DNA of 64,000 nt from Candidatus Woesearchaeota archaeon (lineage in GTDB: Archaea > Nanobdellota > Nanobdellia > Woesearchaeales > GW2011-AR4). The notes beneath the pieces are model-generated. The model made no database searches. It saw nothing but the letters and a program-made list of their open reading frames with translations, and was not told the origin of the DNA. How positions within the stretch are numbered: position 1 is the stretch's first letter; the number at the start of each line of letters is the position of its first letter. The stretch covers positions 1,553 through 65,552 of the forward strand of contig JACOUX010000057.1 in NCBI GenBank assembly GCA_016177615.1, in the 5' to 3' direction. A program made the translations under genes and the position numbers. Below are positions 2,515 to 63,195 of the stretch, piece after piece.

Positions 2515-2564
2515 TTGGCTATTATATCCAACAAAATTTATAAAAAAATAGGATATTGTGATTC

Positions 2565-3311: not shown

Positions 3312-3436
3312 GTTAAAAACCCCCCTAATGTAAAGGGTATTCTGGTTAATTTATAATATTTGTGGTTTTAAGCATATCTGTTAGTTTAATCCTCAATTCA
3401 TTATTTTTATCATTCATTAAATATTGAACCAAAACC

Positions 3437-3444
3437 TTTAAATA
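3437..3444 (+). promoter_or_regulatory. TATA box (TTTAAATA) for 3470 gene
   Basis: Centred 26-29 nt upstream of the ATG at 3470, so the transcript is probably leaderless. Confidence 0.55.
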
Positions 3445-3469
3445 CTTATGTCTATACAATGTCTATACA

Positions 3470-9020: not shown

Positions 9021-9758
9021 GTGGAAGCTGTGATACTTGCTGCAGGATATGCAACGCGCCTGTATCCCTTAACAGAGAACACTCCAAAGCCCCTGCTCAA
9101 TATAGGTGACAAGCCAATAATACAGCATATAATAAAAAATCTTGAGGGCATAAAGGGGCTGAACAAGGTGTATGTTGTGACGAATGATAAGTTCGAAAAT
9201 CATTTTAACCAGTGGCTTAAAAGCTTCGATGCAAGAATCCCTATAGAAATAATAAGCGACGGAACAGCCAGCAATGATGACAGGCTTGGGGCATTGGGAG
9301 ACATACACTATACAATAAATAAACAGAGAATTGATGATGATATCCTGGTTGTTGCAGGAGATAATCTGTTTGAAATGTCCCTGGAAGATGCCCATAACTA
9401 TTTCAAAAAGAAAAAATCAAGCGTCGTAGTACTCTATGATGTGGGAGACTTGACACTTGCCAGACAATACGGAATAGTGGAAGTTGGCGCAAACAATCTT
9501 GTTGTTAATTTCGAGGAAAAGCCAAATTCGCCAAAATCAACTCTGGCATCAACAGGAATTTATATCTTTCCAAGAAAAACAATAGAATTGATAAGAAAGT
9601 ACATTGCCCAGGGAAACAATCCTGATAAGACAGGCTCTTTCATAGAATGGCTCCATAAAAGGGAAAATGTGCATTCTTATATAACAGATAAGGAATGGTA
9701 TGACATTGGAAGCATAGAGCAGCTGACAAAGGCAGATAAATATTACAGGGGCAAATAG
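9021..9758 (+). CDS. sugar-1-phosphate nucleotidyltransferase
   Basis: GTG start preceded by [23 protein letters not shown] signature; 245 aa. Confidence 0.8.
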
Positions 9759-9763
9759 GCAAA

Positions 9764-10696
9764 ATGAAATCAGTTCTTATCACAGGGGGTGCAGGATTTA
9801 TAGGCAGCCATCTTTGCGAATTTCTTTTGGAAAAAGGTTTTAAAGTTATCGCAATGGACAACGTAGTTACGGGAGACATAAGAAATATAGGGCATTTAAG
9901 GGGCAATGCCAATTTCCAATATATAAATCACGACGTCAGCAGGCATATCTCAATAAACGATGACTTGGATTTTGTTTTGCACTTTGCAAGCCCTGCAAGC
10001 CCTATTGATTACCAGAAGATTCCAATCCAGACTTTAAAGGCAGGCAGTCTTGGGACGCATAATACCATCGGGCTGGCTCTCGCAAAAAAGGCGAAATATC
10101 TTCTTGCCTCGACTTCAGAAGTCTATGGAGATCCTCTTGTCAATCCGCAGCCCGAGACTTACTGGGGAAATGTTAATCCTACAGGGATAAGAGCATGCTA
10201 CGACGAATCCAAAAGATTTTCAGAAGCGTTGACAATGGCATACCACAGAATACACGGGCTAGACACAAAAATTGTCCGCATATTCAACACCTTCGGCCCG
10301 AAAATGCGGAAAGAAGACGGAAGAGTCGTGCCAAATTTCATAAACCAGGCATTAAAAAATGCGCCAATAACAGTTTACGGCAGCGGCAACCAGACAAGAA
10401 GCTTTTGCTATGTTAGCGATTTGATTGAAGGAATTTATAGGCTTATGGCATCTCCCTTGAATGAGCCGGTAAATATAGGCAACCCCGAAGAACATACAAT
10501 CCTTGAATTTGCAGAGTTAATAAAAAAGCTGGCAAAAAGCAAAAGCAAGATTGCCTTTAAGCCGCTGCCCCAGGATGATCCCCATGTAAGGTGCCCTGAT
10601 ATAACCAAGGCAAAGAAAGAGCTGAAGTGGCAGCCGAAAGTCGAATTGAGGGAAGGGCTGATGAAGACGATAAAATGGTTTATGAAAGGGAATTAA
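9764..10696 (+). CDS. uxs: UDP-glucuronate decarboxylase (UDP-xylose synthase)
   Basis: [20 protein letters not shown] (YxxxK), and overall UXS-like sequence. It lies directly downstream of ugd. Confidence 0.8.
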
Positions 10697-35283: not shown

Positions 35284-38200
35284 ATGACAGAAGAAACACA
35301 AGAGAAAATAGGCACAAAAATAATACCTAGAGTCATACAAGACGAGATGAAACAGGCATATTTAGATTACTCTATGTCTGTTATTGTTGGAAGAGCATTA
35401 CCAGATGCAAGGGATGGCTTAAAGCCTGTGCATAGACGTGTTTTGTTTGCAATGAATGAATTAGGGCTAAAAAATAACCAGCCATTTAAAAAAAGTGCGC
35501 GTGTGGTAGGAGAAGTACTTGGAAAATTTCATCCCCATTCTGATATTGCAGTCTACGATACTCTAGTTCGCTTAGCCCAAGACTTTTCAATGCGATATCT
35601 TTTAGTTGACGGCCAGGGAAATTTTGGATGCTTTACATCAGATACAAAAGTCAAGCTAGCAGACGGAAGAGACTTATCTTTTGCAGAGCTGATAAGAGAA
35701 CATGAAGAAGGAAAAAAGAATTTTACATTTACTGTTGGCGAAAAAGGAATTATCAAAATAGCTGAAATAAAAAATCCCAGATTGACAAAAAAAGACGCAG
35801 AAATAATGAAAGTCATTTTGGATAATGGGGAAGAAATTAAATGCACATTAAATCATAAGTTTATGCTAAGAGATGGAATTTATCGTGAAGCTCAGAATTT
35901 AATGGCTGGAGATTCTTTAATGCCGGCATATTTCAGAATTTCTACTAAAGAAGATGATCCCAATGTTTCTGGTTATTCAATGATTTTGCAGCCCAAATTA
36001 AACCTTTGGAATTATGTACATGTTTTATCGGACGAAATTAATTTAGAAAATGGCGTTTATTCAAGATCTGCTGGCAGAATTAGGCATCATATAGATTTTA
36101 ATAAGCTAAATAATAATCCAACGAAGACTCCAGAATACCGCAAACAGATTCACGATAAAATTGCCGCAAGCAGCAAAAGAAGATTAACAAACTTTACAGG
36201 CAAAAAGAAATTTCTGAATATTTGCGCATATATCAAGAAAAATAACTTAGGAATTGAAAAATATTATGGAAACGACATAAATTTAGTTTTATGCGAGGTC
36301 AATGGAAATCATAAAGTATCCAGAATCGAGTTTTTAAATGAATTTACTGATGTATATGATATAACGATAGATGGAAATCACAATTTTCCTTTAAGTGCGG
36401 GAGTTTTTGTGCATAATTCTGTCGACGGTGACCCTGCAGCGGCCATGAGGTATACAGAATGCCGCCTGACAAAACTTGCAGAAGAAATGCTTGCAGATAT
36501 CGACAGGAAGACAGTAAGGTTCATTCCAAATTTTGACAATACAACAGCTGAGCCAGTCGTTCTTCCTTCAAAGCTTCCTAATCTGCTAATCAACGGCAGC
36601 TCAGGAATTGCAGTCGGAATGGCAACAAACATTCCTCCGCATAATATTGTTGAAATAATTGATGCCGTGGTAATGCAGATAGACAGGCCTGATGTTGAAA
36701 TTTCAGATATTCTGGCTGTTGTTCATGGCCCTGACTTTCCAACAGGGGCGCTGATATGCGGCAGAAGCGGGATAAGGGAGGCGTATTCTACAGGCAGGGG
36801 AAAGATTCTCGTAAGGGCTAGAACAAGCATCGAGGAAGACAAGAATAGGCGCACAATAATTGTTACTGAAATACCTTTTATGGTCAACAAGTCAGAGCTT
36901 CTTGAGGAGATAGCAGACCTTGTAAGCGAAAAGAAAATTATTGGCATCTCTGATTTAAGGGACGAAAGCGACAGGCATGGCATAAGGGTTGTCGTTGAAT
37001 TGAAAAAAGATGCTGATCCTAATGTGGTCATTAATCAATTATTCCAGCATACAAGGATGCAGACGACATTCGGGATAATAATGCTTGCATTGGTCAACAA
37101 TGAGCCAAAAGTGCTGAGCATAAAGCAGCTGATTCACTATTATATAGAGCACAGAAAAGATGTCATAAGAAAGAGGACATTGTTTGATCTTAACAAGGCA
37201 CAGACAAGGGCGCATATCCTGGAAGGGCTGCTTGTTGCCCTTGCAAACATAAATGACGTAATAAATCTGATAAAGGGCAGCAGCTCAGTTGAATCCGCAA
37301 AGCAGTCCCTGGAAGAATCCTATAATCTCACATCAGAGCAGTCAAATGCAATCCTTGAGATGAGGCTCCAAAGATTGACTTCGCTTGAGCAGGAAAAGTT
37401 AAGGCAGGAGCATTCTGGCCTGCTAAAGCTTATTGAGGAGCTTGAGTCAATTCTTTCAAACCCGCAGAAAATTCTGGATATAATAAAAAAGGAGCTTGGC
37501 GAACTGAAAGAGAAATATAATGACAAAAGAAGAACAGAAATCATCGAAGAGGAAAGCACGGACCTCGAGACAGAGGATTTGATAAAGGATGAGGAAATGG
37601 CTATAACAATCACCAATTCAGGCTACATAAAGAGGCTGCCATTGCAGACATACAAAATCCAAAGGAGGGGCGGCAAGGGAGTTATTGCGGCAGCTACAAA
37701 AGATGAAGATATTGTGAAGGATATTTTTGTAGCAAGCACGCATTCATACATGCTTTTTTTTACAAACAAGGGAAAAGTGCACTGGCTCAAAGTCTACAAT
37801 ATACCTGAGGCCAGCAGGCAGGCAAGAGGAAAGGCAATAATAAACCTTCTTCAGCTTTCAAATGATGAAATTGTTAATGCATTTGTTCCTGTCAGGGCTT
37901 TTGACAATACCCATTATCTTATTATGGCCACAAAAAAAGGGACTGTAAAGAAAACAGAGCTTATGGCTTACAGCAACCCGAGAAAAAACGGAATCGTTGC
38001 AATCACGCTTGAGCAGGGAGATGAACTTATCAATGTCGAGCTGACTGACGGAAACCAGCAGATAATTTTAGCAACTAAAAATGGGAATGCAGCAAGATTT
38101 GAGGAAAAAGATGTTAGGTCAACAGGAAGGTCTGCCCAGGGAGTCAGAGGAATAAGATTAAGGGATAATGACGAAGTCATAGGAATGGTTGTTGCATCAG

Positions 38201-38520
38201 ATGAAAAGACTCTGCTGACAGTGACTGAGAACGGCTATGGAAAAAGAACCCTCATATCAGAATACAGGCTAATTAGCAGAGGCGGCTCAGGAGTGATAAA
38301 CATCCAGTGCAGCGAAAGAAATGGAAAAGTTGTCACAATATGCGACGTAACAGATAATGACGATTTAATCTTTGTCAGCAGGAACGGAATTGTAATAAGG
38401 TGCCCTTCAACTGATATTTCTGTTATTGGAAGAAATACACAAGGAGTTAGGGTTATGAAGCTGGAAGAAAATGACAAAGTTGTGAGTGCTGTCAAGATTG
38501 CAAAAGAAAATGTTGTTTAA
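35284..38520 (+). CDS. gyrA: DNA gyrase subunit A, intein-containing precursor
   Basis: [17 protein letters not shown], then QGNFG|intein|[14 protein letters not shown] (catalytic Tyr region), plus C-terminal beta-pinwheel repeats. 1078 aa, or 815 aa without the intein. Confidence 0.9.
35629..36417 (+). mobile_element. 263-aa intein in gyrA with an HNH-like internal segment
   Basis: Starts [13 protein letters not shown] (block A) and has TLNHKF (block B). Ends [18 protein letters not shown], followed by +1 Ser. The internal [15 protein letters not shown] resembles an HNH core. Confidence 0.8.
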
Positions 38521-38525
38521 AAAGA

Positions 38526-38533
38526 TTTAAATA
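38526..38533 (+). promoter_or_regulatory. TATA box (TTTAAATA) of the giant gene
   Basis: Centre is about 27 nt upstream of the ATG at 38557, in the 36-nt gap after gyrA. Confidence 0.55.
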
Positions 38534-38556
38534 CTTTTCATTTAGATGAAGAATGG

Positions 38557-41500
38557 ATGAAAATTAATAAAGGGGAAAAAGAGTCGAGTTCATTTTTTTT
38601 TATATCGGCTGCATTGATATTGATAGCTGGCATATTCTTCTTTATGGGCTATTTTGATAATAGGCTTTCATCAATAACAAATAAAGTAGTGGCAGCTGGG
38701 GCTGTTACACCTACTGCAAATCTCTATGTCCGTGATGGCGGAACTGGTACGACGTGCACAGATTGGGGAGCAAACGCTTGTGATACTCTTCCAGCCATTC
38801 TCCAGCGAGGAGCGACGTACTATATCGCTGATGGCTTCTATGGCAGCTACACCTTTGATGATCCTGTTTCTGGGACACAACCGATTACCGTCAAAAAAGC
38901 CACCATTGCTGAGCATGGAACTGCCACCGGCTGGGATAATACTTATGGCGACGGAACTGCTGTTTTTAGTGGTATAACTTTTACTACTTCCTACTGGGTT
39001 TTTGATGGCGTAACAGGTGGGGGGACAAGCACCTGGAATTCCGGCAAGGCTACTTCAGGTTTTGGCTTTGAGGTTACGAGGACTCCTCCGAATGTCTGTG
39101 GGGACAATGGCAATCTGGTTACTTTAGGTGCGAGCGTTTCTAATATTATTATCAAACATGCCAATATTCATGCTGGCAGCAACAACTATCCCATAAATGG
39201 CATCAAAGGTACGAATGGAGCAAGTAACATCATTATTTCTGACAATGCCATTTACACAACCTTCGGGCCAGCATTCCATATCGGAACGTGGAGCAATGCG
39301 GTCATAGAACGAAACTACATAGCGGATGTGAGAAATACTGGCGCTACCGATCCGCGTGGCTTTTGCGCGAACTGGCACGCCGAAGGGATTTCCTCGATCG
39401 GCACCAACAACAACCTAACCGTCCGCCACAATCTCTGGGATCGGATCGACGGCACCGCGGTCATCGCCGGAGTTAATGTAGGTACCTCAAACAACTGGAA
39501 AGTATATGGCAACATATTCTCGCGGAGCGTTACCCCAATCTACTACTACTTTGAGCCATCGCCCGGTACGAACCGGCAGACGATGAATAATCTCGAGTTT
39601 TACAACAACAACATCGTCAATATGCTCGGGGGTTCCCAAGGAGGCATTATGATCCAATCCGGCTCCAATAACCGAATTTACAACAATATCTGGTACAACA
39701 ATATTGCGAACTCTTTCGCCATATCCGGGACGCACGATTACAATTTCTTCTCTGATAACCGAAGAACCGAGGGCTGCAACCCCGCCTGCGACAAGGACGC
39801 GGAAGGCGCTGCCGGCGAAGCCAATGCCCAGACTTCATCCGGCGATCCTTTCGCCGGCGGCAGCAACGTGGATCCTTTGACCGGTAATTTCCATTTAAAG
39901 TCAGCCACCAATCGGGGAACTTCTCTGCCTTCACCCTATGATGTTGATCCAGATAACGCTATCCGCGGCGTTGATGGTGTGTGGGACAGAGGAGCGTATG
40001 AATATGTTCCTTCTACTTTGCGCATTTACTATGTTGCCCAGGCAGGGAATGATGCTAATCCAGGCACTTTATCACAACCATGGAAAACCATTCAGAAAGC
40101 GGCAAACACGGTGCAGGCCGGCGACACAGTCATTGTGAGCGCAGGAACGTACAACGAGCGTGTCACTTTTTCTGCTGGCCATTCCGGCAGCGCCGGCAAG
40201 AAGATCACTTTCATCGCCTCTCCGCTCAAGTCCGTGATCATGCAGGGATTTGACACCACCAACGCCAACTACCTGCGCATCGAGGGCTTCAATATCACCG
40301 GTTCGCCGCCGTGGTGGAAAGGCGGCGGCGTGTGGCTGTCAAGCAACAACGTGGAGATTGTCGGGAATTATTTTTATGATTTGATCGGCGCGGGGGTATT
40401 AACGTTCTGGGACCAGAATAAGCTGCTGCAGAATACCTACATAGCCAACAACCACATTTATCACTCCGGAGCAGGGATTTATGCCGTTGGTAATAACGTG
40501 CTTGTAGAAAACAATGAAGTGGAGCGGTTGTATACCCAAGCAGGCAGTCCGGATGCGGATTACGCGCGCTTTTTTGGCAGCAATATCACTTTCAGAAATA
40601 ATTTTTTCCATGGCACGCAGGAAAACGAAACCGGTGCGTCGCACGTTGATTGTTTCCAGACGTATGACGTCAATGGGGAATATGCCCAGCACGTTCTGAT
40701 AGAAAACAATGCCTGCTATAACTACGATCAAGGGCTGATGGTGAGTACCGCCAAATACCGCAATAGCTATGACTTTACGTTACGAAATAACGTCTTTGCC
40801 CACTCCCTAGCATGGGGGCTGTCGGTCTATGCTGTTACTGATGTCAAGGTCTACAACAATGTGTTTGCGGACGTGAAGTATCACGGCGTGGGATTCGGTG
40901 CGGGCGCGACGGGAGAAGTAAAAAACAATATCTTTTATAATGCCGGCAGCAATTACTGGGCAGACGCCGAGACCAATGCCACCGTGACCGGCGGCTACAA
41001 CATTCTCTATCCCGAACACTACCCCTGGTTCAAAACAGCAACGGATATTATCAAAGACCCGCTGTTTGTGGATGCGGCCAATGATAATTTTCATCTCAAA
41101 AGCAATTCGCCTGCAATTAATGCGGGAACGGTTATAAGCGAGTTTAATTATGACAAAGATGGCACCTCCCGCCTCCAAGGCACGGCATGGGACATCGGAG
41201 CGTATGAATATGCCACAGGAGCTCCACCAACCGCCACCTATTACATCCGAAGCGGCGCGACTGGTTTGACCTGTGCTGACTGGGGAGCCAATGCCTGCAA
41301 TGCATTGCCTGCAACTCTCCAGAGAGGAGCCATCTATTATATCGCTGATGGCAGCTATGGTTCATATACATTCGACGATCCGGTTTCAGGAACACAAACC
41401 ATTACCATAAAAAAAGCGACTGTTGCAGAGCACGGCACGAGCACAGGATGGTCAGACTCTTACGGCGACGGCACAGCCGCATGGGGAGCCGTGACGTTCA

Positions 41501-44500
41501 GCACCTCATACTGGGTTTTTGATGGCGCTACAGGCGGCGGGCATGGATCGTGGACATCAGGACATGGCTTTACGTTTTCCTCGCCTGCGGGAACTAATGT
41601 CGCTTACGTCAGCCTTCCAGACGGAGTTTCAAATATCATCGTCCGGCATTCCTCATTTACCCAGACTGGCAACACTGAAGCAACGACTATTGGTGCGCAT
41701 GCATTTTACGCTCCTGGCACACTCAGCAATTCCCTATTTGAATATAACTACTTCGAGAACTTGGGTGGGTTGCCATTTCTCTTCCGAAATGGGGCTGGCA
41801 ACGTAATTCAATACAACTGGTTGGGGAACATCTGCGGTCAAAGCGTAGCAGATGTAAATCAGCACTGCGAGGCACTGGTGTTGTGGGACATGGATGACGT
41901 GCATTTCCGGTGGAACTATATCGGAGAGTCACCGTCCAGCGGCGGATTCGTCAAAAACGCCAATCCAACATCTGACTCGATTCGCATCTATGGCAACGTC
42001 TTTCGCAATGGTTTTCCAATTAACTGCAACACAGGACCCTGCACCAATTGGCGCATCTTCAACAACGCTTTTGTCACTGGCATTACTGGACCGCTTGGCG
42101 GAGATGGAGCCCGCTCCGGATTTTTGGTTTACAACAATATCATTCGCAATGCCAACGTGGCATCGTTAGGTGGCACGCACGACTACAACTGGTACAGCGC
42201 TGTTACTGGCACTAGCTGCAGCATGCAGTCAAGCGCTCACGAAAACGTTAACAAATTGTATCCCGGTAATTGCGACACGGTCACTGAGACGCTCAATCCA
42301 TTCGTTAACATAAATGGAGCGACTCCAGAGTCTTTGAAACTGGCTAATCCACTGAGCGGCAATCCTGGAACAGATGTTTGCGCTCTGGACTCGTGTACCG
42401 GGAATAAGTTTTATAATCTCGATGCATTCGGAAACATCCGCGGCGCTGACGGTGTGTGGGATAGAGGAGCATACGAATACACTGGCTCTTCCCCGCTCTC
42501 ACCGCCAGCAGGCACGTTCTACATACGCGATGGAGCTACTGGCACAACATGCACTGACTGGGGAGCAAATGCTTGTGATACTCTTCCAGCCATTCTCCAG
42601 CGAGGAGCGACGTACTACATCGCTGATGGCTCCTATGGTAGCTACACCTTTGATGATCCTGTTTCTGGGACACAAACCATTACCATCAAAAAGGCCACTC
42701 TCGCGGATCATGGGACGAATACAGGATGGCAATCGAGTTATGGCGACGGCGTGGCGTCCTTTTCAGGCATCAGGTTTTCCACCCCCTACTATACCTTTGA
42801 TGGTGTAGTTGGGTCGGGTAAGACCGGACATGGTTTCGAAGTCCAACCCAGTTCGCCCGCTGACGCTATAGTTTTGTCAGGAAACGTGAACAACATCGTT
42901 TTCAGACACATCAATGCTCACATATATAACGAAGGTACAGCGAAGACTTCCATGACGACATTTACCATGATCCTCAAGGCAACAACCGGCACGACAAATA
43001 ACATCATAATAGAAGACTCCTATTTCCATCACGTTTTCGGATGCCAAATGCAGGTTGTCGGCGCCAACAATTGGATTATTCAGAACAATTATATGTCTAA
43101 TCAAAGGTCTACGGCAGAGCAGCATGCTGCACTCTGGTGTGACCAGTCAAGCGACAACGTGATATTCAGAAATAATATGTTTGTGGATATTGAAGGAACG
43201 TCTTTCATTGACTTAATCGAGGGACCGGATACAGCAAATGGATTCAAAATCTACAACAACTTATTTTGGCACTCCAATAGCAACCCGTGGGGGGCGTCTG
43301 TTTCAGGAGTCATTACAGTCGCCAATGATGCTTCCAATGCCAGGACTGCGACCAACTGGGAGATTTACGGGAATTCAATAGTCAATATAAAAGGCAGGAG
43401 CGCTATTGACATTGCATCAGGAAGCGGGAACGATGTCAAAAACAATTATTGGTTCTGTAACCGACAAGATGATTCCTATACTAACTATATGTTCATTTCT
43501 GGTGCTGCATCTAGTTACAATTATTATTCAGCATGTGCGCATCCGTACTCCTTCAGTAGCGGTACTGGAGAACCTGTCCTTTTGGATGGTCCTAACAGCA
43601 AACTGTCCGCAAATTCAACCAATCCATTCATGGATTGGCCTAACGGCGATTTCACATTAAGAACAGCAACCTGGTCGGGCGCCAACTTACCTTCTCCGTA
43701 CAATACAGACTTGCTTGGCAACATCCGCGGCGCCGACGGTGTATGGGACAGGGGCGCATACGAATTTGCTGGTGGAGCAACACCGCCTCCGCCTTCTTCT
43801 AGGAACTGGTACTTGCGATCGGGTGCCACGGGCAACGGGTCATCGTGGACAAACGCATGGGGCAGCGTGGGCAGCATTGCTTGGAGCTCGATCCAGCCAG
43901 GGGACACGCTTTGGATTGCCGGCGGAACTTACGGCAGTCTGGTCGTCGGCAAAAGCGGAAATGCCGATACGGATGCCGGACGCATATTTATCAAGCGCGC
44001 GACACAGTCTGCTCACGGCTCAGACACGGGCTGGAGTTCATCCTATGATTCACAGGTGGTTTTTGCGAGCATTTCCTGGACCTCACCCAATGTCGGAAGC
44101 TACGTCACCGTAGATGGTCAAGTGGACAGCGGAATAAGAGTGGCAACCAGAGCAACCGGAGGAAGAGAGGGAACAGCAGTTTTTATCGGACGAGGGCAAA
44201 ACTACATCACTCTTAGGAACATGGAAATGGCCGGCCCATGCGGCTCGACTCCGTGTATGCAGGGCGGCGATAATCGCGCTCTTTCAACGACGGCTTGGAG
44301 CGGCTCTTCTTATGAGTTAGTGGATAATCTGAAAGTACAATATTCAAAGATTCATGGGGCCTGTACGAACATCTGGCTGATGAATGCGGATAATGCCATT
44401 CTCGAGTACAACGAAATCTACAATTCCCATGCCACTGATACGGTACCTTGTCATCCAAATGTTGTGGCCACTTCTCAATCCAGCAATGTCATATTTCGCT

Positions 44501-47500
44501 ACAACAAGGTGCACGACTACGCGACAGAGGGAATAATGATGCTCTCGGGCAATTCTGGAACATGGTACGTTTATGGAAATCTCTGGTACGCGGGCACGGG
44601 ATATGCGAGGGTGCTGGAGTCACAAGACGGAACAAATGGGCCAGTTTATTTTTATGGCAATACGATGGTGGACTTACAGCAAAGCGTCAGAACTGCTAAC
44701 AATGGGGTTTGGCATTCTGCTTCGCAAGGCAGAAATAACATTTATTGGAATGCCAGCAGTCCCGGTCTGCCGAGCGAAAGCAACAATATAGTTGGCAGCG
44801 GGAGCAGTTCGCCTTTCGTCAATTATGCGGGAAGGGATTATCATCTCACGTCAACTTCAGCCGCTCGAAACGCAGGTGCTACCCTAACCAATGACGGGTT
44901 CATCAATAAAGATCTCGAAGGCAATACCCGCGGCGCCGATGGCGCCTGGGACATCGGGGCGTATGAATATATCAGTTCTGGAATACCTCCTCTAGCCGAC
45001 AACGCCTCACTCACCCTCTTCGACGACTTCGGGAGCACTACCCTTGATTCAGCCTGGCTTTTTACCGATCCTCTGCTAAACTCCAATTTCTCCCTCATGG
45101 CAAATCCAGGGCATCTCCAAGTTAATGTTCCCGCAGGCTCAACTCATGACTGCTGGCCGGGAACCAGTAATTGCGTGCGAATGCTACGGAGCGTGAACAA
45201 TGCAGATGCAGTCTACGAAACCAAGATTGATGGCGTCAACATAGGTGCGTCCTACCAAACATATGGCATCATGCTCTCCCAGGACAGCGCTAACTATCTC
45301 CGCTTCGAGTTTTGGAACGGCGGGTCAGGAGCACAGCCATCGGTTTGGAGAATCATCGGTGGATCTGGATCAAACGTAATCCTAGCGCCCGCAACTACTT
45401 TGGGTTCTTCCAACTATATTCGCGTAACAAGAACCGGTTCTGTCTTCCAACTTGACTACAGTACTAACGGCATGACCTGGACAACGGCCGGCTCATTTAC
45501 CCAAAGCGGATTTACCGTTAACCAAGCCGGTGTCTATGTTATCAATGCCGGAGCTAATCCGGCGACCACTGGGAATTTTGATTATTTTTCGGTGGCTCAA
45601 TTTACACCGCCTCCTCCCACCGATACCACCCCGCCAGTCGTCAGATCCTTTGTCATCCCCGCTACTGCCACCTCACTCACTGTCCCCATCACCGCCTTCA
45701 CCGCCACGGATAATGTCGCGGTGACCGGCTATCTCATAACCGAGACCGCCACTGCCCCGGCTGCCACTGCCACTGGCTGGACTGCCTCGGCTCCTGCTTC
45801 CTACACATTTGCTTCGGCTGGCGCCAAGACGCTTTATGCCTGGGCCAAGGATGCGGCGGGAAAAGTATCAGCACAATCAGCAAGTGCCTCTGCCACAACG
45901 CTTGCTTTGCCTCCATCTGGCGATATTCCTTTTGCTTCTGTCACCATTGACGCAAACAATCCGGTTGACCCTCATAATAAAGCCGTTGGCGATATCAATG
46001 GAGACGGGTTCGTGGATGTGCTGGCAGCCGGCAGTAGTTCAAGCGGCCTTTATTGGTATGAGTATCCCAGCTGGACCAAGCGTCTCATTGCTTCCGGAGC
46101 GTTTACGACTGATATGGAGACAGGAGATATTGATGGTGACGGCGATGTAGACGTTGTCATTCCTAATGGATTAGGCCTGATGTGGTATAAAAATCCCAGA
46201 CCTCTGGGTAACCCGGCCACTGATGCTTGGACACCCGTTAACATCGGGGGAGCCGGCGCCAATAATCATGATGTTGAACTTGCGGATTTGAATAAAGATG
46301 GGAAACTTGACGTTGTGAGCCGCCCCAAAGGTGGCGGAGCCACCAACGTCTGGCTCCAAAATACTCCCACCTCTTGGACGCGAGTCGTTGCAAGCACTAG
46401 AGCAGGTGAGGGCACTGCGCTTGGCGATATCGATGGGGACGGAGATGTCGATATTGCCCATAACGGGTTCTGGCTCGAGAATCTAGGCAACGGCGCTTCT
46501 TGGTCAGAACGTAACATTGATGTGAATTGGCCCTTGGATGTTGGGGTGCATATCGCTGATATCAACAAAGACGGCCGCAATGATGTCGTGCTGGCACCAT
46601 CCGAAAGCGGCGGACGGTTTTCGTGGTATGAGTCCATCAATCCCAAAACTGGGCCATGGACTGAACACGCGATCAGTAGCACGATTTCATACGCCCACAC
46701 CTTTAAATCCGCAGACATGGACAAAGACGGCAAGTTGGATCTGGTGACGGCGGAAATGCACCAGTCCAGTAACGATGAGGTGAGTGTTTGGCGCAATAAT
46801 GGCGGGGGTCTTTCCTGGACGAAACAAGTGGTGGTCAACACAGGGTCACATAACTTACGACTGGCTGACATTGGCAATGATGGGGATATCGATATTGTTG
46901 GCGCCAATTGGAACGACGCCGCTCCCGATTCAGCGATTATTCGCATGTGGCGAAACGATTTGAACTCCAAGTCGACGCTGGATAGTTGGCAGCGGTCTGT
47001 GGCGGATGTCGCCAAGCCCGCCAGAGCTGTTTTTATTCGATCAGCTGATTTAGACAGTGACGGCAAAAAGGATCTCGTGACGGGTGGTTGGTGGTATAAA
47101 AACCCAGGCACTCTCTCTGGTGGCTGGACAAGAAAGACCATTGGTGCCCCGCTTAATAATATAGCAGTGATATACGACTTTGATTCTGACGGCGATCTGG
47201 ATCTCTTGGGCACCCAAGGAGTTGGCAGTGATGTCAATAACCGGTTTGCTTGGGCGCGTAACGACGGCAAGGGTAATTTTACCGTCTTGACCAACATCGC
47301 TACCGGAGGCAGCGGCGATTTCTTGCAAGGAGCGGTCGCAGGCCGGTTCTCAAGCGCTGGATCGATTCAAGTGGCCCTGTCCTGGCATAACGGCGGAGGC
47401 GGGGTTCAGATGCTGACGGTGCCTGCCGACCCCTCGACGACTACCTGGACCTGGAAAGTGATTTCAACGACTTCCCAAGACGAGGACTTATCGGCCGGCG

Positions 47501-50500
47501 ACATTGATCGTGATGGCGATTTGGATCTGCTGTTGGGCACTCAATGGCTGCACAATGATGGCAGTAGCTGGACACCGCTTACCCTCTTTTCTACCACTGC
47601 TTCTCCGGATCGCAATCGCCTGTCTGACATTAATCGCGACGGACGGCTGGATTCAGTAGTCGGGTACGAGGCTATCAGTGTGTTTGGAAAGCTTGCTTGG
47701 TATGAGCAGCCGCTTAATCCTACTAACGCTTGGACTGAACATGTGATCGCTAATGTGATAGGTCCTATGAGTTTGGACGTAGCAGATATGGATTTTGACG
47801 GTGACCTGGATGTCGTTGTGGGAGAGCATAATTTAGCTAATTCCGCTAGCGCCAAACTTTATGTTTTTGAAAATGTTGACACAATAGGCGGAACGTGGAG
47901 TTCACACGTCGTCTATACGGGAGATGAGCATCATGACGGAACCCAAGTGGCCGATCTGGATAGTGATGGTGATCCAGACATCTATTCTATCGGCTGGAAT
48001 AATAATCAGCTAACGGTTTATGAGAACAAAGCTACAGTCGCTATTCTTCCTCCACTTACTCCCACTCCCAATAATTTTTATGTTCGACCAAAGGGAAATG
48101 TTTATGGTTCTGGAAATGGTTTGGACTGGAACAACGCATGGTCCGACGTAACCGCAATCAATTGGAACGCCGTCTCGGCTGGAGACACGATCTGGATCGC
48201 CGGAGGCAGCTACGGTGTCCTGACTATTGGCAAAAGCGGTACGGCAGGGAATCCAATCAAGATATACCGGGTTCGTGCGACTGACCCTGTGCCGACTTCA
48301 GCAGCAGGGTGGAGCGCCTCCTATGATTCCACGGTCACGATGGTTCGGGTTGTCAGCGAAAGCCGCAGCTATTGGACCCTTGACGGGCGGGTGCCCCACA
48401 TCGGGATATCTGTGGTGAATCCCTCGCTGACTTCACACGGCGTCTACCTTGGTACTAGCAACTGGAGCGGCATCACCCTGACGAATTTGTTGCTTTCTGG
48501 GCCGGTGCCAGATAACACCATTTCCGGAGTGACAGAGCAAATAAGAGCGATCCACTACAACGGTTATCAAGGATCTGGCAGCGGACTCACTGTCAGTTAC
48601 TCAACTCTGGAGAAATATCCCAATCTTGCATTGCTTATCAACATAAACAATGTGCTCATCGAGCATAACAAATTTCAGAAGAACTACAGGGGATCAGGCA
48701 GCGTACACCCCGGTGTGATGTCTGTCATAGGCCTGACAAATGTCAAATTTCGCTTCAACGAGATAACGGAATGGCAGGCCGAAGGCATTATGATGGATTT
48801 CATCGGTGCCGGTGACGCCGTTAATGACAATTGGGACATATACGGCAATCTATGGCATGACAGTATCGCTGGGTCGACCAACAATATACTTACTGCTCAA
48901 TACAAGCCCCAGACCAACATTCGCTTGTACAGCAATACCGTCGTAAATTCCTGGCTTGGTATTATTGTAGGGAATGGAGGTTCCTGGGCAAGCAGTAGCA
49001 TAAGCAGAAATAATCTTATCTACTTTGCTCAGACGTACACGACTCTGGACTTTCCCGGCGGGGATAATGATTACAACTATGGCAATGCGCCGGCGAGGGG
49101 CGCTCATTCCATATCGAATCTGAGCAGCAACGTGTTCGCAAATTACGCTGGGCGTGATTATCGCATTGTCTCCACGATTGGTGCGGGCTATCCACGAGAT
49201 AAGGGAGTTGCCCTAGGATCATTGTACGGTGTGGATTTTGCGGGCAACACGAGGATTGGTGCTTGGGACATTGGGGCGTATGAATATACTGGCATTACAC
49301 CTCTGGTTGACACAACTCCGCCTATAGTTACTTCGTTTAGCATTCCGTCAACATCTAACTCTCTTACTGTTCCAATTTCTTTATTTACTGCGACTGATAA
49401 TGTCGCTGTGACCGGCTACCTTGTAACCGAGACTGCAACCGCGCCTGCTGCCAGTGCTGCGGGCTGGACTGCATCGGCCCCTCCTTCCTATACGTTCTCT
49501 TCTGCTGGCGCAAAGACACTCTACGCGTGGGCCAAGGATGCGGCTGGCAAGGTGTCGGCGAGCGCAAGCCGTTCTGTAACCATTACATTACCGCCGGAAA
49601 CCTGGAAAACTTATTATGTAGATTACGACTCCGGCTCTGATTCCAATAACGGATTATCGGCATCTGCGCCATGGAAGCATGCGCCTGGCGATAGCAATGC
49701 AGTTGGAAATCCCAAATCAAAGGTTCTCGCTGCCGGAGATACCGTGCTTTTCAAGGGCAGCGTGAAGTATCAGGGAAGCATTGCGCTGGACGGCAGATAT
49801 GCGTTTGGTGCCACAGGAAACCCGATCACCCTCAAGGGAGATGGCTGGGGAAGCGGTAAAGCTGTTATAGATGGCTCTGAACCGATCACCGCTGCTTTCA
49901 AAAAGTGCCAGTCCTCGGCCCAGTGCGCTGGCAATCCCAACTGGAACAGCATGTACTACGCGGACATCGGCAGCGGCTACACATTTGAGACAGGATTTTA
50001 TGAAGACGATAATTTCCTTTGGTATGCGCAGGATCCGAATCCTACTGACCCATTCAATTACGACCGCAGAGATTCCATGAGGGTTATTCCAAAAGGAAGC
50101 ACAACCATCACACAAACACGAACGTCCATTACTGATCCTACGTACTTTACCCAAAGCGACCCGGCATTTTGGAACAGCGCCTATGTCATTGCCTGGCGCG
50201 TGCCCAACGTGATGTCGATCAAAAAGATCACCGGGTACAACCCCGCAACGCGCACCATCTCCCATGAAGATCTCGGTGGCGATCTTTACGACCACACAAG
50301 CTACGATAGCTATTATGCCATTCTCAACCACCCTTCTGTCATTAATGCGGAGCGCGAATACAGCTACGACCAGCCAACGGGCAGGTTCTACCTCTGGCCC
50401 AAGGGAGGAGATATCAGCGGGCATACCTACAGCGTACGAAAGCAGAGCGCTGGCATCTATGCCAATTCGGTGAAGAATCTCGTCATTGAAGGATTTGGTG

Positions 50501-53500
50501 TCCAAAAATTCACCTTTGGCATTCGCGCCGTAGATGGCGGCAGCGGGATTACGCCAGAGAATGTCGTCATTCGTAATAATGAAGTTCGCAAGCTGAAATC
50601 GAATGACTGGTATGGCATCCAGGTAAATGGAATGAACATTTCTGTCGAGAATAACAAAGTCACCGATGCCCAACGGGCAATTGGCATTCTTGTCGGCGGC
50701 AATGGAATCATGGTCAGGAACAACTTTGTACAGAGGACGTCTCGCAACGGCATTTGGTTTATGGGTGCGGCAAACAGCCAGATACTCAATAACACCATCA
50801 CCGAAATACTCGGGACGCACGCGAATTCCATCACGGTATATCAGGACAGCCAGAATATTCTAGTGGCGAACAATAAGGTGTTCAATTCGGAGCGGCCGCT
50901 GACATTCGAACGGTCGCAGAATTTGACGGTTATAAACAATCTTTTTGATGGCCGGCTGGACGGAAAATTTTTGGATTCCCACATCGTTGCTGACTGGGGG
51001 AACATGACAGGGGCTGTGAATTTGCTCAATAATGTCATAGTAGGGAGCAATCGCACTTCTCTGCTGCTTCAGAGTACGGCAAATTTCGTCGTCAAGAACA
51101 ATATCATCGGCAACCAGGTCCCATCGGGAAGCTCGGCCCTTCCTTACACGAACAACATTTTTACCAATCCAAGCAGTGCGCCATTGAGCAATGGCAACAT
51201 CCAAGTCACTGACCTTTCAAAAATATTCGTCGACCCAATATCTGTTCCAGCAGACTACCGCCTCAAACAGGGTTCTGCGGCAATAGACAAAGGAGGCGGT
51301 ATCTCTTCTGTCTTCCCGTCAACTCTTTTTGCCGGTTATGAGTATGCTAAAGATTTCGCCGGCACCTCCCGCCCCAAGGGCTCAGCATGGGATATCGGGG
51401 CGTATGAATCATCCGCTAGCGGTGCTAACTGGTACGTTGATAACCTCGCAACCGGAAAAAATGACGGCACGTCATGGGCAAATGCATGGAAATCTTTCGG
51501 GTCTATAGTCTGGGGTGCCAGTGGAGTCAAGGCAGGCGACACATTACACATTTCAGGCGGCACGAGTTCAAAAGTGTACCATGAGACATTGGCAATGATG
51601 TCAAATAGTGGGACGGCAAATGCGTGGATTACAATCTCAGTCGGCCAGGACGCTGGTCATAATGGCCAGGTAATTGTAGATGGGGATAATATCAGAAATA
51701 AGGGGATCAGTATTGGCAGCTACACTCTTCTCACAGGAAAAGTCGGCAATTCATCCAAATTGACATTGAGGAATTTTGTCGTAAACCAAACCGGCAACCG
51801 TGAGGTGGATAGCGGCACGGCAATCTGGGCTGCCGCGAATACTATAATTGAATATACGGAAATTAACCATGCGAATAACGGGATCTATGCTTATGGGCAA
51901 AATACTGAAATTAGAAACAGCTATCTTCACGACATCTGGGGGGATTTCGCAATTCGCGCAGTGCAATACCTTGGAACTGATTTTGATAACATCAGGATTC
52001 ACCATAACACAATCGAGGTCAATGGCGACTTCACCGGAAGCAACGGCGGGCCGGACGGCGTGCAATCCCGCAACGGCTTGACCATGAATGATAATGTTTT
52101 GAGGGTCGTTTCCGGACCGGTAAATCCCGGCCAGCATCCTGACGGGGTCCAGGCCATGGGCAGCTATAACAAGATCTACAACAATTACTTTGCTAATTTC
52201 ATCAACTCCGGCATAAAGATCGAGCCTTTCCAAGATACGGCCTGGGAAGGAGATTACATCTACAATAATATAATTACAGTTGACTCAAGCCCTTTGCCGA
52301 ATTTGTATGAGCGCGGCATTGAATTCGGGGCAGCTGTCAATGTAACTTCTGTCAAAAATGTACTCATCTTGAACAACAATTTTATCGACCTGAATTTTCT
52401 GGGAATAAATGGGGGCGTCAAGACGACAAACGTTTCGAATGTTGTCATCAGGAATAATGTTTTCCACAACACAGGAAGAAATTCAGGCAAGGCGGTTATA
52501 GCGTGGAATGACCCGGGCAAGAAAACAGACATTGACTACAACCTTATAAGCCCGGGCTCTGACGGGGGCAATCTGATTATTTTAAACGGCAACTGGAGCT
52601 CTAGTTATGTTCAAGCCCATCCAAGGGCAGGCACGCCATCATTTCTTTCTTATTCCTTGCCGAGAAACCGGAATAACAATTTCCATCTCGCTACGAGTGA
52701 CACTGCTGCGAGAGATTTGGGCATGGACGCTTCTGCCTATTTTAATTCAGACAAAGATGGCGTTATCAGGCCCCAGGGCTCGGCCTGGGACATAGGGGCT
52801 TACGAATATAATAGCTCTATTATTTCTGCAAAACAGAATGTTCATTATATCCGAGCAGGAGCTGCAGGAGCAAATGACGGTTCTGACTGGGCAAATGCTT
52901 ATTTCTCTTTTCCAGCTAATTTAGTGGCGGGCGATACTTATTATGTTGCAGGCGGAAATTTCAACACAACAACTATTCGAAGCGCATTGACAAGCACATC
53001 ATGGACATACATAAAAAAAGCAACTGCTTCATCTCATGGAACTGGGACTGGTTGGTCTGACTCTTATGGCGGCCAAGTCACCATTAACGGCACTTTGTTT
53101 GTGAGCAGCCCTTACTTGGATATTGATGGAGTTACAGGCGCGGATAATTCAGGATATGGAATTAAAGTGGTGATGAAGAATTGCAACACAAATGCTCAAG
53201 GTATCTATATTGCCCAAAATCAAGGGCATATCCATCTCTCCCATATAGAAGTCCAAGGGTGCGGAGAAGATATTCCCTTTGATCAAAGGGGGGTTTTTAC
53301 AGTGAACACTTTGCCCGTATCTGATCAGTACTATAGTTACCTTTGGGTTCATGACCTTAGCGGCAATCCAATAAGCCTTGGCCAGTATACTAACAACTTT
53401 ACTCTCGAATACTCAAGGCTTGAGAGAATGCATCAAATAGATCCATCAATTCACGGACAAGCGATACAGATCACTGCGCCGCCATCAAACAACATAACAA

Positions 53501-55824: not shown

Positions 55825-55951
55825 GTGTGCAGGGAATTTTAAAAAATGTCAAATGACGAGCTGCTCAGTGTGGTGAAGGTTGCAAAAGAAGGGAATGGCG
55901 GCAATGAAGATTAGCTCAAATCCTTTAGTCTGTAATCCACCATATTATGAA

Positions 55952-56194
55952 TCAAAAAACAGCCAATAAGCCGCCTGAATAAATAAAAAATTTCCACGAC
56001 TTCTTGAATATTGAGTAAGAGACTATCCAGATTGCTATCAGGCCGCCCATAATGGGCAAAAACAAGGAAATAAAGAATTCCATTCCAAGCTCATAATTTA
56101 ACTGATATACGCCAACGAAAAGAACTATCAGGCTCAGTACGGCTAAAATTACTGATTCCATCTTCAGCCATTTAGGCAGTTCTTTCCAATTCAT
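55952..56194 (-). CDS. small membrane protein (3 predicted TM helices)
   Basis: 80-aa hydrophobic ORF. Confidence 0.4.
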   Translation of the reverse strand: MNWKELPKWLKMESVILAVLSLIVLFVGVYQLNYELGMEFFISLFLPIMGGLIAIWIVSYSIFKKSWKFFIYSGGLLAVF

Positions 56195-56264
56195 ATGATT
56201 CCAATTTCATCATAACTATTTAATACTTTCCTTACAGCGACGTTAAAATTGAAAACCCAAACAT

Positions 56265-61557: not shown

Positions 61558-62734
61558 CGAGCAGGTACAGCTGAAAGAATTCAGCAAATCAGAGGAATTA
61601 ACAGGCAAGCTGTCATTCCAGCAGCTTGAGGACAAGTTCATGCATTCTGTCCTTGAGAATGACCGGAAGGTCATAGATGAAGGCAAGCTGATAAGCGATG
61701 CAATAAGCCAAGGCATTTCTTCTTTTTCCCCTGACATGATGTTTGAGCAGCTTGTAAAGAACTATTCAATAGCGAAGCATATCTATGGTGAATCAATAAT
61801 AAGATTGGTTTCAGGATACGAGCCAGATTACATAAAGAAGAATATAGGAATTCCAGAATTTCAGAAGCATCTAAAGGAGAAGATTCAGCAGAAAATTGAG
61901 GAGTTAAAAGAGGAAGGATTTCTTGATAAAGGCAGCTCGATTTCAGAAAAAGGAGTTGAATTGGCTTCTCTTGTTTTGTATTTTGAGGAATTGGACAGGA
62001 TTGTGCCGAAAGGAATTGTAGGAGAGAAACTAAGCAAGAAAGCATTTATTTATGGCGAAAAGGAAGATTCCAGGATTTTCAAGAAAGGCGACAGGTACCG
62101 GGACATTGCGCTTAAGAAGTCGGTGAAATTGGCCATAAGAAGGGGGCATGATTATTTTGAGGATAAAGATTTGCAGGTTTATGAGAAGCGAAGCAAAGGC
62201 AAGACATACATTGTTTATGCGCTTGATGCATCAGGCTCTATGAAAGGGAGGAAAATAGATGCATGCAAAAAGGCAGGGATTGCCCTTGCCTACAAGGCGA
62301 TAAATGAAAAGGACAAGGTTGGATTGATTGTATTCGGACCTGAAGTCAAGGAAGTCATAGAGCCCACATCCGACTTTACTGCGCTCATAAAGAAAATAAC
62401 AAAGATAAGGGCTTCAAAGGAAACCGATATAGTTTCCACCTTGCACAAGGCTGTTGAGATTTTTCCGTCCGAGAGCATAACAAAGCACCTTATATTGATA
62501 ACTGACGCATTGCCGACAAAAGGGGATGAGCCTGAAAAGTCAACCCTTGAAGAGGTTTCAGTGGCAAGGAGCAAGGGGATAACAATCTCCTTAATTGGAA
62601 TAAATCTTGACGAGAAAGGAAGGAAGCTGGCAGAGCAGATAGTTGAAATAGGGGAGGGGAGGCTTTATGTAATCAGGAATTTGGAGAATGTTGATCAGGT
62701 TGTGCTGGAGGATTATTATAATTTACAGAATTAG
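61544..62734 (+). CDS. von Willebrand factor A (vWA) domain protein, partner of the AAA+ ATPase
   Basis: MIDAS motif YALDASGSM in the C-terminal half. Start uncertain: GTG at 61544 lies behind a GGAG; alternatives are TTG at 61451 or ATG at 61640. Confidence 0.7.
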   Translation: MIYGSEQVQLKEFSKSEELTGKLSFQQLEDKFMHSVLENDRKVIDEGKLISDAISQGISSFSPDMMFEQLVKNYSIAKHIYGESIIRLVSGYEPDYIKKNIGIPEFQKHLKEKIQQKIEELKEEGFLDKGSSISEKGVELASLVLYFEELDRIVPKGIVGEKLSKKAFIYGEKEDSRIFKKGDRYRDIALKKSVKLAIRRGHDYFEDKDLQVYEKRSKGKTYIVYALDASGSMKGRKIDACKKAGIALAYKAINEKDKVGLIVFGPEVKEVIEPTSDFTALIKKITKIRASKETDIVSTLHKAVEIFPSESITKHLILITDALPTKGDEPEKSTLEEVSVARSKGITISLIGINLDEKGRKLAEQIVEIGEGRLYVIRNLENVDQVVLEDYYNLQN

Positions 62735-63195
62735 AACCCTAGTTTAGCAAGTTCTTCAAGGTCGTCAGTTGTAATCCCACTTCCAGCGTTGCGATTATTG
62801 TTATCTTCAGGCCTCCATAACTCAAAACGGCGCAGATTACCGATAATAACTACTGTAAAAGGCTCCTTTATGCCTAAATAAAGAAGGGCATATTCTGGCA
62901 ATATAAATCTAGGATTGCCTCTTCTAGTATGTGCGCGCTCTAAATCATAACTCGAAGCAGCCAAAGTATTTCTACCAGCTTGACTCAAAATATCATATGC
63001 AATATTCCATAAACCTTCTGGGACAAATGACAAATGCTTATATCCATCTGTCTTATCCTCTCTTAATACATAAACACTATCAGGTATATGAAATGTATTT
63101 GGAACAAATAGTGATCTATCCTTATTTATTCTTGCAGAGGTACTTCCCCGAAATATAGGGTAGTTAGTAATCTCACTTATTGATGCTGCTTTCAT
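62731..63195 (-). CDS. mraZ: MraZ-family (tandem SpoVT/AbrB) protein homolog
   Basis: IFRGSTSARINKDRSLFVPNTFH and VVIIGNLRRFELWRPED mirror the two MraZ signature segments (FRG..LD.KGR..vP..fR and vG....fEiW). 154 aa. Confidence 0.55.
   Translation of the reverse strand: MKAASISEITNYPIFRGSTSARINKDRSLFVPNTFHIPDSVYVLREDKTDGYKHLSFVPEGLWNIAYDILSQAGRNTLAASSYDLERAHTRRGNPRFILPEYALLYLGIKEPFTVVIIGNLRRFELWRPEDNNNRNAGSGITTDDLEELAKLGF

Follow-up and report, generated by a model that had tools for sequence, protein, structure and literature searches.

Lateral transfer of genes from bacteria to DPANN archaea has been described before, as have large extracellular proteins with bacterial domains in Woesearchaeota and Pacearchaeota (Castelle et al. 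2021, PMC8204110), and large Cys-rich surface proteins have been reported for DPANN archaea (Probst et al. 2018, PMC6792436). Giant genes for multidomain surface proteins are known from Omnitrophota and other bacteria (West-Roberts et al. 2023, bioRxiv 10.1101/2023.11.21.568195). Here we analyse a stretch of 64,000 nucleotides (nt) from a Candidatus Woesearchaeota archaeon (assembly GCA_016177615.1, contig JACOUX010000057.1, positions 1,553 to 65,552), hereafter the window. It holds a giant open reading frame (ORF; 38557-55824, + strand) that encodes a protein of 5755 amino acids (aa) in one unbroken frame. The protein combines nine right-handed beta-helix modules (M1 to M9), a ConA-like lectin, an FG-GAP propeller, several immunoglobulin (Ig)-like domains and a C-terminal cassette. 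We consider that bacterial modules were captured in frame onto an anchor typical of the lineage and became partly adapted to the host's codons, in a gene that is accessory, and we put the probability of this reading at roughly two in three.

In the passages of PMC8204110 and PMC6792436 that deal with them, the DPANN proteins resemble this one in host, in their huge size and membrane anchoring, in bacterial-type domains, in Cys-rich and Ca-binding-like segments and in presumed contact with partner cells. The domains differ, with beta-helix, choice-of-anchor Q, FG-GAP and lectin here and lytic transglycosylase there; moreover, a step in codon usage inside one ORF, visible here, is noted for none of the DPANN surface proteins in those passages. 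The Omnitrophota genes share with the giant gene a very long ORF, carbohydrate domains and a proposed role in attack or attachment, and some named homologs of M7 come from Omnitrophica. They differ in size (more than 30 thousand aa, compared with 5.8 thousand aa here), host and architecture. A term search of the preprint returned no mention of codon usage and found GC content in figure legends only.

The modules themselves are like choice-of-anchor Q (NF041518) and beta-helix (PF13229, PF05048, PF07602) proteins, with NF041518 on five of the nine modules and matches over whole proteins. However, choice-of-anchor Q proteins have a single passenger and a bacterial C-terminal sorting signal, whereas here nine units are joined without signal peptides and the final anchor is an archaeal-type transmembrane cassette. 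Horizontally acquired DNA is said, following Lawrence and Ochman, to carry compositional signatures that fade as it gradually adapts to its host (amelioration). The giant gene resembles such cases in its atypical third-position GC content (GC3), codons and tetranucleotides, in its absence from relatives and in values that lie between those of the host and of putative donors. It is unlike them in that the boundary falls within one reading frame rather than between genes, and in that no integrase, tRNA gene or flanking repeat of at least 30 nt was found. The capture of bacterial domains by an archaeon is here a clear example of a known process and no new principle; what is added is a step in codon usage still legible within a single ORF, and a recurrent anchor cassette.

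In 1-kb windows, GC content was 0.48-0.53 at 39-51 kb, compared with 0.33-0.44 in the rest of the window. The core of the giant ORF (~nt 39,170-52,790; 13.6 kb) had a GC content of 0.50 and a GC3 of 0.54, whereas the other 42 ORFs of the window, each of at least 150 aa and together serving as the host reference set, had a GC content of 0.400 (standard deviation (s.d.) 0.030 between ORFs) and a GC3 of 0.425 (s.d. 0.065). Part of this rise lies in the protein, in which Gly, Ala, Thr, Ser and Asn are abundant and Lys, Glu and Ile scarce, with a second-position GC content of 0.48 versus ~0.32. The GC content predicted from its aa sequence and host codon usage is 0.459, and aa composition accounts for ~58% of the raw GC rise in the core. 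The synonymous share is ~42%, with a GC3 of 0.538 observed and 0.430 expected when conditioned on the aa sequence. This residual of +0.11, together with a comparison of identical residues (see below), rules out aa composition as the sole cause.

Segmenting the GC3 residual with two change points gave steps at codons 205 (nt 39172) and 4745 (nt 52792), with a fit gain of 20.3. When synonymous codons were shuffled within the gene (300 times), the gain averaged 3.3 and did not exceed 7.0. The 3' step is sharp and coincides with the M8/M9 boundary. The 5' step is small and can be placed only to 38.7-39.4 kb, inside M1, although it is significant (reached in 0 of 500 shuffles). Along the 5' end, GC3 ran from 0.2-0.4 over aa 1-60 through 0.39 over aa 56-152 and 0.4-0.5 up to aa 270 to 0.6-0.8 beyond, and the subdomain that matches aa 56-152 is also low in GC3 in M3 (0.49) and M4 (0.47). 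The 5' boundary is soft, and only the first ~55 codons are host-type with any confidence. Tetranucleotide usage deviations in the core correlated with the rest of the contig at 0.27-0.52, compared with 0.84-0.95 for 3-kb windows clear of the giant gene.

The synonymous shift is seen across codon families. CGN codons make up 68% of Arg codons in the core but 11% of those in the host set (p=1e-46), ATA and ATC make up 20% and 42% of Ile codons in the core versus 43% and 19% in the host, and the codons of Ala, Thr, Val, Leu, Gly and Pro shift in the same way. Every 400-codon window of the core lay 4.5-6.2 s.d. below the host ORFs in host-codon fit; z was -2.4 for aa 4401-4800 and -1.0 and -0.3 over aa 4801-5755. 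Among 174 ORFs of relatives, the s.d. of the GC3 residual was 0.065 and only a single ORF reached at least 50% CGN. Woesearchaeota codon tables gave a clear fit for aa 1-55, for M9 and for the cassette. M9 also serves as an internal control: at residues that are identical across paralogous modules it has AT-ending codons where the core modules have GC-ending ones, with discordant codon counts of 28-39 versus 7-17 per M9/core-module pair (paired tests, p = 0.03 to 5e-6). Because M9 shares fold, residues and mRNA with the core modules, neither aa composition nor expression level can explain the step.

An earlier reading of the window from its letters alone (the sequence-only reading) had anticipated several of these features. 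The switch of third positions to C/G-rich, the 3' boundary near 52.8 kb, the host-like codons of M9 and of the sequence 3' of it, and the continuity of the frame across both transitions all agree with the measurements above, as does the outcome of the tetranucleotide comparison that it had proposed. Its hand counts of 50-60% GC inside and 28-40% outside had the right direction but overstated the size of the contrast, and the 5' switch that it placed after nt 150 of the gene is displaced into M1. M8, described there as intermediate, is so in its Arg codons (5 of 16 CGN) and host-codon fit but not in GC3, where it is core-like (0.53).

Where the modules come from was examined by homolog searches run module by module, with M2, M3, M4 and M7 as the core modules searched. 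For each of M2, M3, M7 and M9 there are stand-alone proteins of 420-650 aa that match the entire module at 48-61% identity, and all module matches that carry a taxon name are bacterial, although most top matches carry none. When ten unnamed NCBI matches were traced to the members of their clusters, one cluster gained a name, Planctomycetota. For M7, alignments to stand-alone proteins of 600-650 aa covered 99% of the module, with identities of up to 55%; the named matches of M7 come from Omnitrophica, Planctomycetota, Desulfobacteraceae, Kiritimatiellae and relatives of Verrucomicrobia. The top match of M7 has a bacterial gene context, on a contig that also encodes a NAD-dependent DNA ligase (LigA), a type IV pilin and a prepilin peptidase. 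An exhaustive search with M2-M3-M4 against 1.84 billion representatives gave 21,028 matches, the best at 61% (M3-like) and 57% (M2-like) identity. Nearly all are single-module proteins of 420-1000 aa; the few multi-module proteins among them (2.3-4.9 thousand aa) match at just 33-36% identity. Locus L019 holds a stand-alone, full-length homolog of M2 (48% identity) next to a homolog of M7.

The best matches of M9 are stand-alone proteins of ~450 aa (53% and 48% identity over the full length) encoded in bacterial exopolysaccharide loci. One such locus has exosortase, histidine kinase and toxin-antitoxin genes and a GC content of 0.56; in another, the neighbour is a Laminin_G/FG-GAP gene, and the same protein also occurs on a second contig, whose GC content is 0.51. 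In a neighbour-joining tree, M9 grouped with stand-alone proteins, M1, M3 and M4 formed a clade, M5 and M6 a pair, and M8 stood alone. Rather than being native, M9 seems to have been acquired earlier, or from another source.

Homologs of different modules also lie side by side in other genomes (L019, 8570-11944; the 60-kb contig of P0195, which is bacterial by gene context; L021, 140-2831). These pairs are M2-like with M7-like and M9-like with Laminin_G (Laminin_G/FG-GAP on the 60-kb contig), within polysaccharide loci. As the homologs are clustered there as separate genes, the domain repertoire of the giant protein mirrors gene neighbourhoods found elsewhere. In IMG/VR, full-length relatives of the M1/M9 type occur on 16 viral-class contigs (L065-L080) at 27-44% identity, which says little.

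The C-terminal end of the protein has a different set of relatives. Its last 586 aa match P0131 and P0176, both named Woesearchaeota by NCBI, and several unnamed proteins with different N-terminal parts. A scan of metagenomes with an alignment of the Cys knot (A1; 19 invariant columns) found 43 loci on contigs with a GC content of 0.31-0.47 and with passengers of 330-1640 aa, and the knot of the window is 39-61% identical to these. The family has a common layout, into which the window's copy fits: a poly-Gly/Ser linker, a CNMDWQC..R.C.FVKVPQH knot, a stalk, a transmembrane helix and a basic tail. The whole 505-aa cassette is 37-41% identical in L023, L034, L038 and L042. The two NCBI-named members are P0131 and P0176, most contigs are unlabelled by taxon, and one cassette contig (L029) shares a gene that is 61% identical to a gene of the window. 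On these sequence relationships, we regard the cassette as typical of the Woesearchaeota lineage. Beta-helix modules of the M1-M9 type were found in 0 of the 43 cassette loci, and the cassette was not found on IMG/VR viral contigs.

Two cassette genes carry compositional steps of their own. L038 (Ga0209211_10034650, 5 kb; gene at 1-3852) joins the cassette to another passenger, made up of Ig domains and a Pfam-less region; its codons 1-700 reach a GC3 of 0.75 with 22 of 25 Arg codons CGN, whereas codons 701-1284 have a GC3 of ~0.30 and 0 of 18 CGN. A low-GC3 island of Ig domains (codons 201-300) lies inside the GC-rich part. L023 (1482-6926) has 19 of 22 CGN in codons 101-800 versus 3 of 20 in codons 801-1815. 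These genes are independent mosaics on the same cassette, and they suggest that the pattern recurs. Most other cassette genes have a passenger GC3 at or below that of the other ORFs on their contig. A wider reading, which we regard as doubtful, would make the cassette a reusable landing platform onto which genes for foreign secreted proteins are captured in frame one after another, yielding very large proteins for adhesion or glycan degradation. Codon adaptation, graded along the gene (cassette and M9 fully host-like, M8 intermediate, M1-M7 least adapted), would then record the order of capture, and the mosaics of L038 and L023 would be further outcomes of it.

The genes around the giant ORF place it in its genome. 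They encode an archaeal CCA-adding enzyme, an intein-bearing GyrA, ScpB, PCNA, RNase J and a glycan-biosynthesis cluster, and the host is a Woesearchaeota (DPANN) archaeon. A scan of GTDB species representatives with the CCA-adding enzyme returned 17 loci (L001-L017), 15 at 66-74% identity and 2 at ~41%. They are labelled Candidatus Woesearchaeota, apart from some metagenome-assembled genomes that are labelled 'Methanosarcinales' and have the same gene order. The latter (L001, L002, L009-L012 and L016) are titled 'uncultured Methanosarcinales archaeon' and have 66-74% identical genes in Woesearchaeota order; their labels look wrong.

The order scpB-gyrA-cca-NTP transferase-PAP2-...-MoxR-VWA is kept in most of the 17 relatives. 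At least ten have gyrA next to cca, and the two genes are spaced by 57-67 bp in L003, L006, L007 and L010-L013. In the short-spacer relatives the motif AAAACCCAAAC..TTTTTATA, probably the cca promoter, follows the gyrA stop codon; in the window its copy lies at 56252. A tblastn search with the giant protein gave zero matches in the loci of the 17 relatives, and no orthologous giant gene in conserved synteny was found among them. Thus, ~17.7 kb (38521-56251) is an insertion, flanked by gyrA and cca themselves. Absence from the syntenic site applies to the whole gene, AT-rich ends included, and not to the core alone; 'native' can therefore mean only that a part is typical of the lineage, and not that it was resident here.

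This changes the origin proposed in the sequence-only reading, in which native anchoring parts had been fused to a foreign or differently evolving block. The foreign codons of the core, the bacterial-type relatives of its modules and the lineage-typical cassette uphold the fusion. The nativeness of the ends at this locus does not stand, since they belong to the insertion, and that of M9 looks doubtful, M9 being of a bacterial-type family with its best matches in bacterial exopolysaccharide loci. The 5' part is weakly defined as native, because nt 38760-38900 are ~94% identical to M4 of the core.

The gyrA-cca spacer is a recurrent insertion site. In L009 it holds (8328-9904) a 202-aa membrane ORF (-) and a 289-aa ORF that resembles DDE transposases of insertion sequence (IS) type, with motifs judged by eye, and in L002, L004, L005 and L017 other inserts enlarge it to 0.25-1.1 kb. 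Such traffic, the insertion of the whole gene with its AT-rich ends and the spread of the cassette over other contigs would suit a mosaic that was made in another low-GC DPANN or Woesearchaeota genome and moved whole into the spacer. This history differs from capture within the present lineage just in the place of fusion. However, the codons of the ends fit the window's genes at least as well as they fit the pooled relatives, and the insert has no accompanying mobility genes; we consider it unlikely.

An artefact of metagenomic assembly would also produce a mosaic, if a beta-helix segment of a GC-richer organism had been misjoined at shared k-mers into a smaller Woesearchaeota gene. The 3' step at nt 52792 lies in the WDIGAYEY-coding motif, the best-conserved DNA between modules, and the 5' transition sets in within ~100-200 nt after an exact 47-nt direct repeat (38776-38822 = 42571-42617) shared by M1 and M4. 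An exact-sequence look-up of the neighbouring CCA-adding enzyme found no public contig, and the window's own proteins were not found in the public collection, so that no second assembly bears on the joins. By contrast, the frame is unbroken over 5755 codons, the window contains zero non-ACGT bases, and M1, M8 and M9 are colinear and intact with no indel at the junctions. M8 is intermediate rather than abruptly foreign, and the same kind of in-frame mosaic stands on the same cassette in two independent contigs. The 47-nt repeat is itself part of a ~140-nt tract (38760-38900 in M1, 42555-42695 in M4) that is ~94% identical between flanks of ~60-65%, which points to recent intragenic gene conversion. 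It ties the AT3-richer 5' part to the core, and conversion within one molecule is the simplest explanation for it. On this balance a chimera is unlikely.

Inter-module gene conversion does occur, and runs of five or more T are rarer in the core than in host coding sequence (1.3 versus 2.4 per kb), as might be expected of a wholly native gene whose core GC3 had been raised by GC-biased conversion or by codon selection for translation, beta-helix folding or oligo-T avoidance. We find this the least credible of the histories considered, as the gene is missing from the relatives' syntenic site, M9 has a GC3 of 0.36 on the same fold and mRNA, the segments marked by conversion (the N-terminal parts of M1, M3 and M4; GC3 0.39-0.49) are the lowest in the core while the non-recombining M2 and M7 are the highest (0.57-0.59), and expression level cannot vary within a single ORF. 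The separate causes fail on the same facts: GC-biased conversion among repeats, one way in which the block might have been 'differently evolving', is contradicted by the GC3 of the converted segments; translational selection is rejected by one ORF and one mRNA with a paralogous M9 that lacks the bias; and avoidance of oligo-T terminators is rejected because T-runs are not depleted over the last 3 kb of the gene.

Under the preferred reading, in-frame accretion of bacterial-type secreted modules onto the anchor cassette would have built a giant membrane-anchored protein of the cell surface. The core, from ~aa 200 of M1 through M8, would retain the GC3-richer, CGN codons of its source in partly adapted form. 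M9 would have come first, or from an AT-rich source, and the core later. M1, M3 and M4 are only 40-45% identical to one another in aa sequence, yet all have raised GC3, and we infer that their duplication is older than their stay in the AT-rich host, so that the core would have arrived with its duplicates already diverged. Conversion may still be active between M1 and M4, and the finished accessory gene sits as a 17.7-kb insertion between gyrA and cca.

Several observations weigh against this reading. The codon usage of the core fits none of the tested models well, whether of the host or from the available bacterial tables, and M3, M4 and M8 fit the host slightly better than they fit bacterial models. 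Donor codon tables from L018, L019 and L020 gave no good fit to the core, and no donor can be named; a poor fit to both sides is the look that would be expected of partial adaptation to host codons. The closest homologs of M7 and M2 lie in low-GC genomes (0.33-0.41) and do not point to a GC-rich donor. Databases yielded no close donor, ortholog or colinear relative, the best match being the one at 61% identity, so the direction and timing of transfer are ones that we infer. No mobility genes, tRNA genes or flanking direct repeats of at least 30 nt lie at the insertion borders, and a tRNA scan and an Rfam scan found no tRNA genes or Rfam families in the 64-kb window. The neighbour-joining tree is unbootstrapped and built from homologs collected with M9 as query. 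Finally, DNA motifs repeated between modules are found at or near both compositional junctions, and an assembler could misjoin there.

Table 1. Coordinates of the giant gene, its parts and the surrounding insertion (positions in the window)
Feature	Position	Strand	Evidence and remarks
Inserted segment, ~17.7 kb	38521..56251		Between gyrA stop codon and conserved cca promoter motif; gyrA/cca comparison with relatives
N-terminal signal or membrane-anchor segment and linker, aa 1-55	38557..38721	+	Hydrophobic stretch FFFISAALILIAGIFFFMGYF; GC3 0.37 in codons 1-30 and 0.20 in codons 31-60; best fit to Woesearchaeota codon models
M1, aa 56-484	38722..40008	+	Beta-helix, M1/M3/M4 type; 5' transition inside, aa ~150-270; GC3 0.39 for aa 56-152, 0.6-0.8 from aa 271
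Gene-conversion tract shared with M4	38760..38900	+	~94% identical to 42555-42695; holds 47-nt exact repeat
Foreign-codon core, codons 206-4745	39172..52791	+	GC 0.50, GC3 0.54, Arg CGN 68%
M2, aa 485-886	40009..41214	+	DUF1565 and Beta_helix matches, choice-of-anchor Q tail
M3 and M4, aa 887-1737	41215..43767	+	M1 paralogs; best outside match 61% identical
M5, aa 1738-2145	43768..44991	+	M6 paralog
ConA-like lectin (aa 2146-2352), Ig-like repeat 1 (aa 2353-2454), FG-GAP beta-propeller (aa 2455-3160)	44992..48036	+	Pfam DUF1349/GH43_C2; FG-GAP_3 in 8 stretches
M6 (aa 3161-3585) and Ig-like repeat 2 (aa 3586-3681)	48037..49599	+	Self-comparison, repeat family D3; Ig-like repeats 1 and 2 share 78% aa identity
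M7, aa 3682-4290	49600..51426	+	Beta_helix/NosD matches, choice-of-anchor Q tail
M8, aa 4291-4756	51427..52824	+	GC3 0.53, core-like; Arg 5/16 CGN
WDIGAYEY-coding motif closing M8	52779..52810	+	Repeat family D4; 3' step at nt 52792 inside
M9, aa 4757-5170	52825..54066	+	Beta-helix, host-like codons, GC3 0.36
Flg_new_2 (divergent InlB B-repeat), aa 5171-5250	54067..54306	+	Domain scan; host-like codons
C-terminal anchor cassette, aa 5251-5755	54307..55824	+	Homologs in L023, L034, L038, L042; order: Big_13 Ig, DSDDDGVPD, Cys-rich stretch, poly-Gly linker (from 55204), CNMDWQC..FVKVPQ knot (55288-55455), Q/P-rich stalk, transmembrane helix (55582-55638, aa 5676-5694), cytoplasmic tail
80-aa ORF with three hydrophobic transmembrane-like stretches	55952..56194	-	Inside insertion, between giant gene and cca

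All nine beta-helix modules close with a WDxGAYE[YF] motif, which is that of the NCBIfam choice-of-anchor Q domain (NF041518). The family scores above its cut-off at the ends of M2, M5, M7, M8 and M9; M1, M3, M4 and M6 carry the same motif. The GC-richer core also contains antisense ORFs of 160-367 aa (46266-47297, 49717-50820 and 51751-52233, all -), which are most likely composition-driven shadow ORFs rather than genes. The 80-aa ORF downstream of the giant gene has no homolog in the loci of the 17 relatives.

Other genes of the window showed features of their own. GyrA (35284-38520, +) contains an intein at aa 125-378 (Pfam Intein_splicing) whose presence and size vary among relatives: it is absent in most of them (L003, L004, L007 and L009-L012; GyrA of L009 has 813 aa), an insert occupies the site in L002, L005 and L013, and L017 has a ~1.26-kb gap there. 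Upstream of the giant gene, a cluster for surface-glycan biosynthesis (~6.8-33.2 kb) encodes NTP transferases, UDP-glucose dehydrogenase, several epimerases/dehydratases, a Polysacc_synt flippase, glycosyltransferases of families GT1, GT2 and GT4, and a PMT_2 protein. Two small ORFs are atypical in their codons. The one at 62731-63195 (-) has the worst fit to host usage among the flanking ORFs (-0.11), with a GC3 of 0.245 and 5 of 13 Arg codons CGN. The ORF at 5856-6551 (-) has a GC3 of 0.21 and zero Pfam matches.

The architecture suggests how the protein may be displayed and what it may do. It would be exported through the Sec pathway and held by its C-terminal transmembrane helix, with the stalk and Cys knots projecting an ectodomain of ~5,600 aa. 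With its nine beta-helix units, lectin and propeller, this ectodomain would bind, and perhaps cleave, polysaccharides on the surface of partner cells. The right-handed beta-helix fold is assigned from Pfam for M2 and M7, from an AlphaFold2 model for M9 and by homology for the remaining modules. The M9 model, built from 52 aligned sequences, is a right-handed beta-helix with a confidence score (pLDDT) of 94.9. Its fold matches in the PDB are GH136 lacto-N-biosidases, PL9 Pel9A (1ru4; TM-scores of 0.50/0.52), PL6 lyases (alginate lyase/chondroitinase B) and phage tailspike depolymerases (Foldseek E 2e-7 to 1e-3, TM-scores of 0.43-0.52). Sequence identity to these enzymes is just 10-15%, a likeness at the level of the fold only. 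The giant protein has no CAZy-type Pfam match, and PDB sequence searches with M7 and M9 returned none. Binding without catalysis is as possible as catalysis.

DPANN archaea depend on contact with other cells, and their large surface proteins are the foremost candidates for a role in partner choice, although the origins of such proteins are poorly documented. Here the history of one such gene can still be read in a single frame, as putative bacterial modules of glycan-binding or glycan-cleaving type, an archaeal anchor and graded codon adaptation. The anchor cassette can serve as a probe for further proteins of this kind, and the two other contigs, L038 and L023, suggest that the mosaic pattern recurs. 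Should the cassette indeed act as a landing platform, it would, together with these mosaics, provide a lineage-wide mechanism for quickly changing partner-cell specificity. The giant gene itself offers a concrete, testable example of how the capture of domains across the bacterial-archaeal divide may shape the surface of a symbiont.

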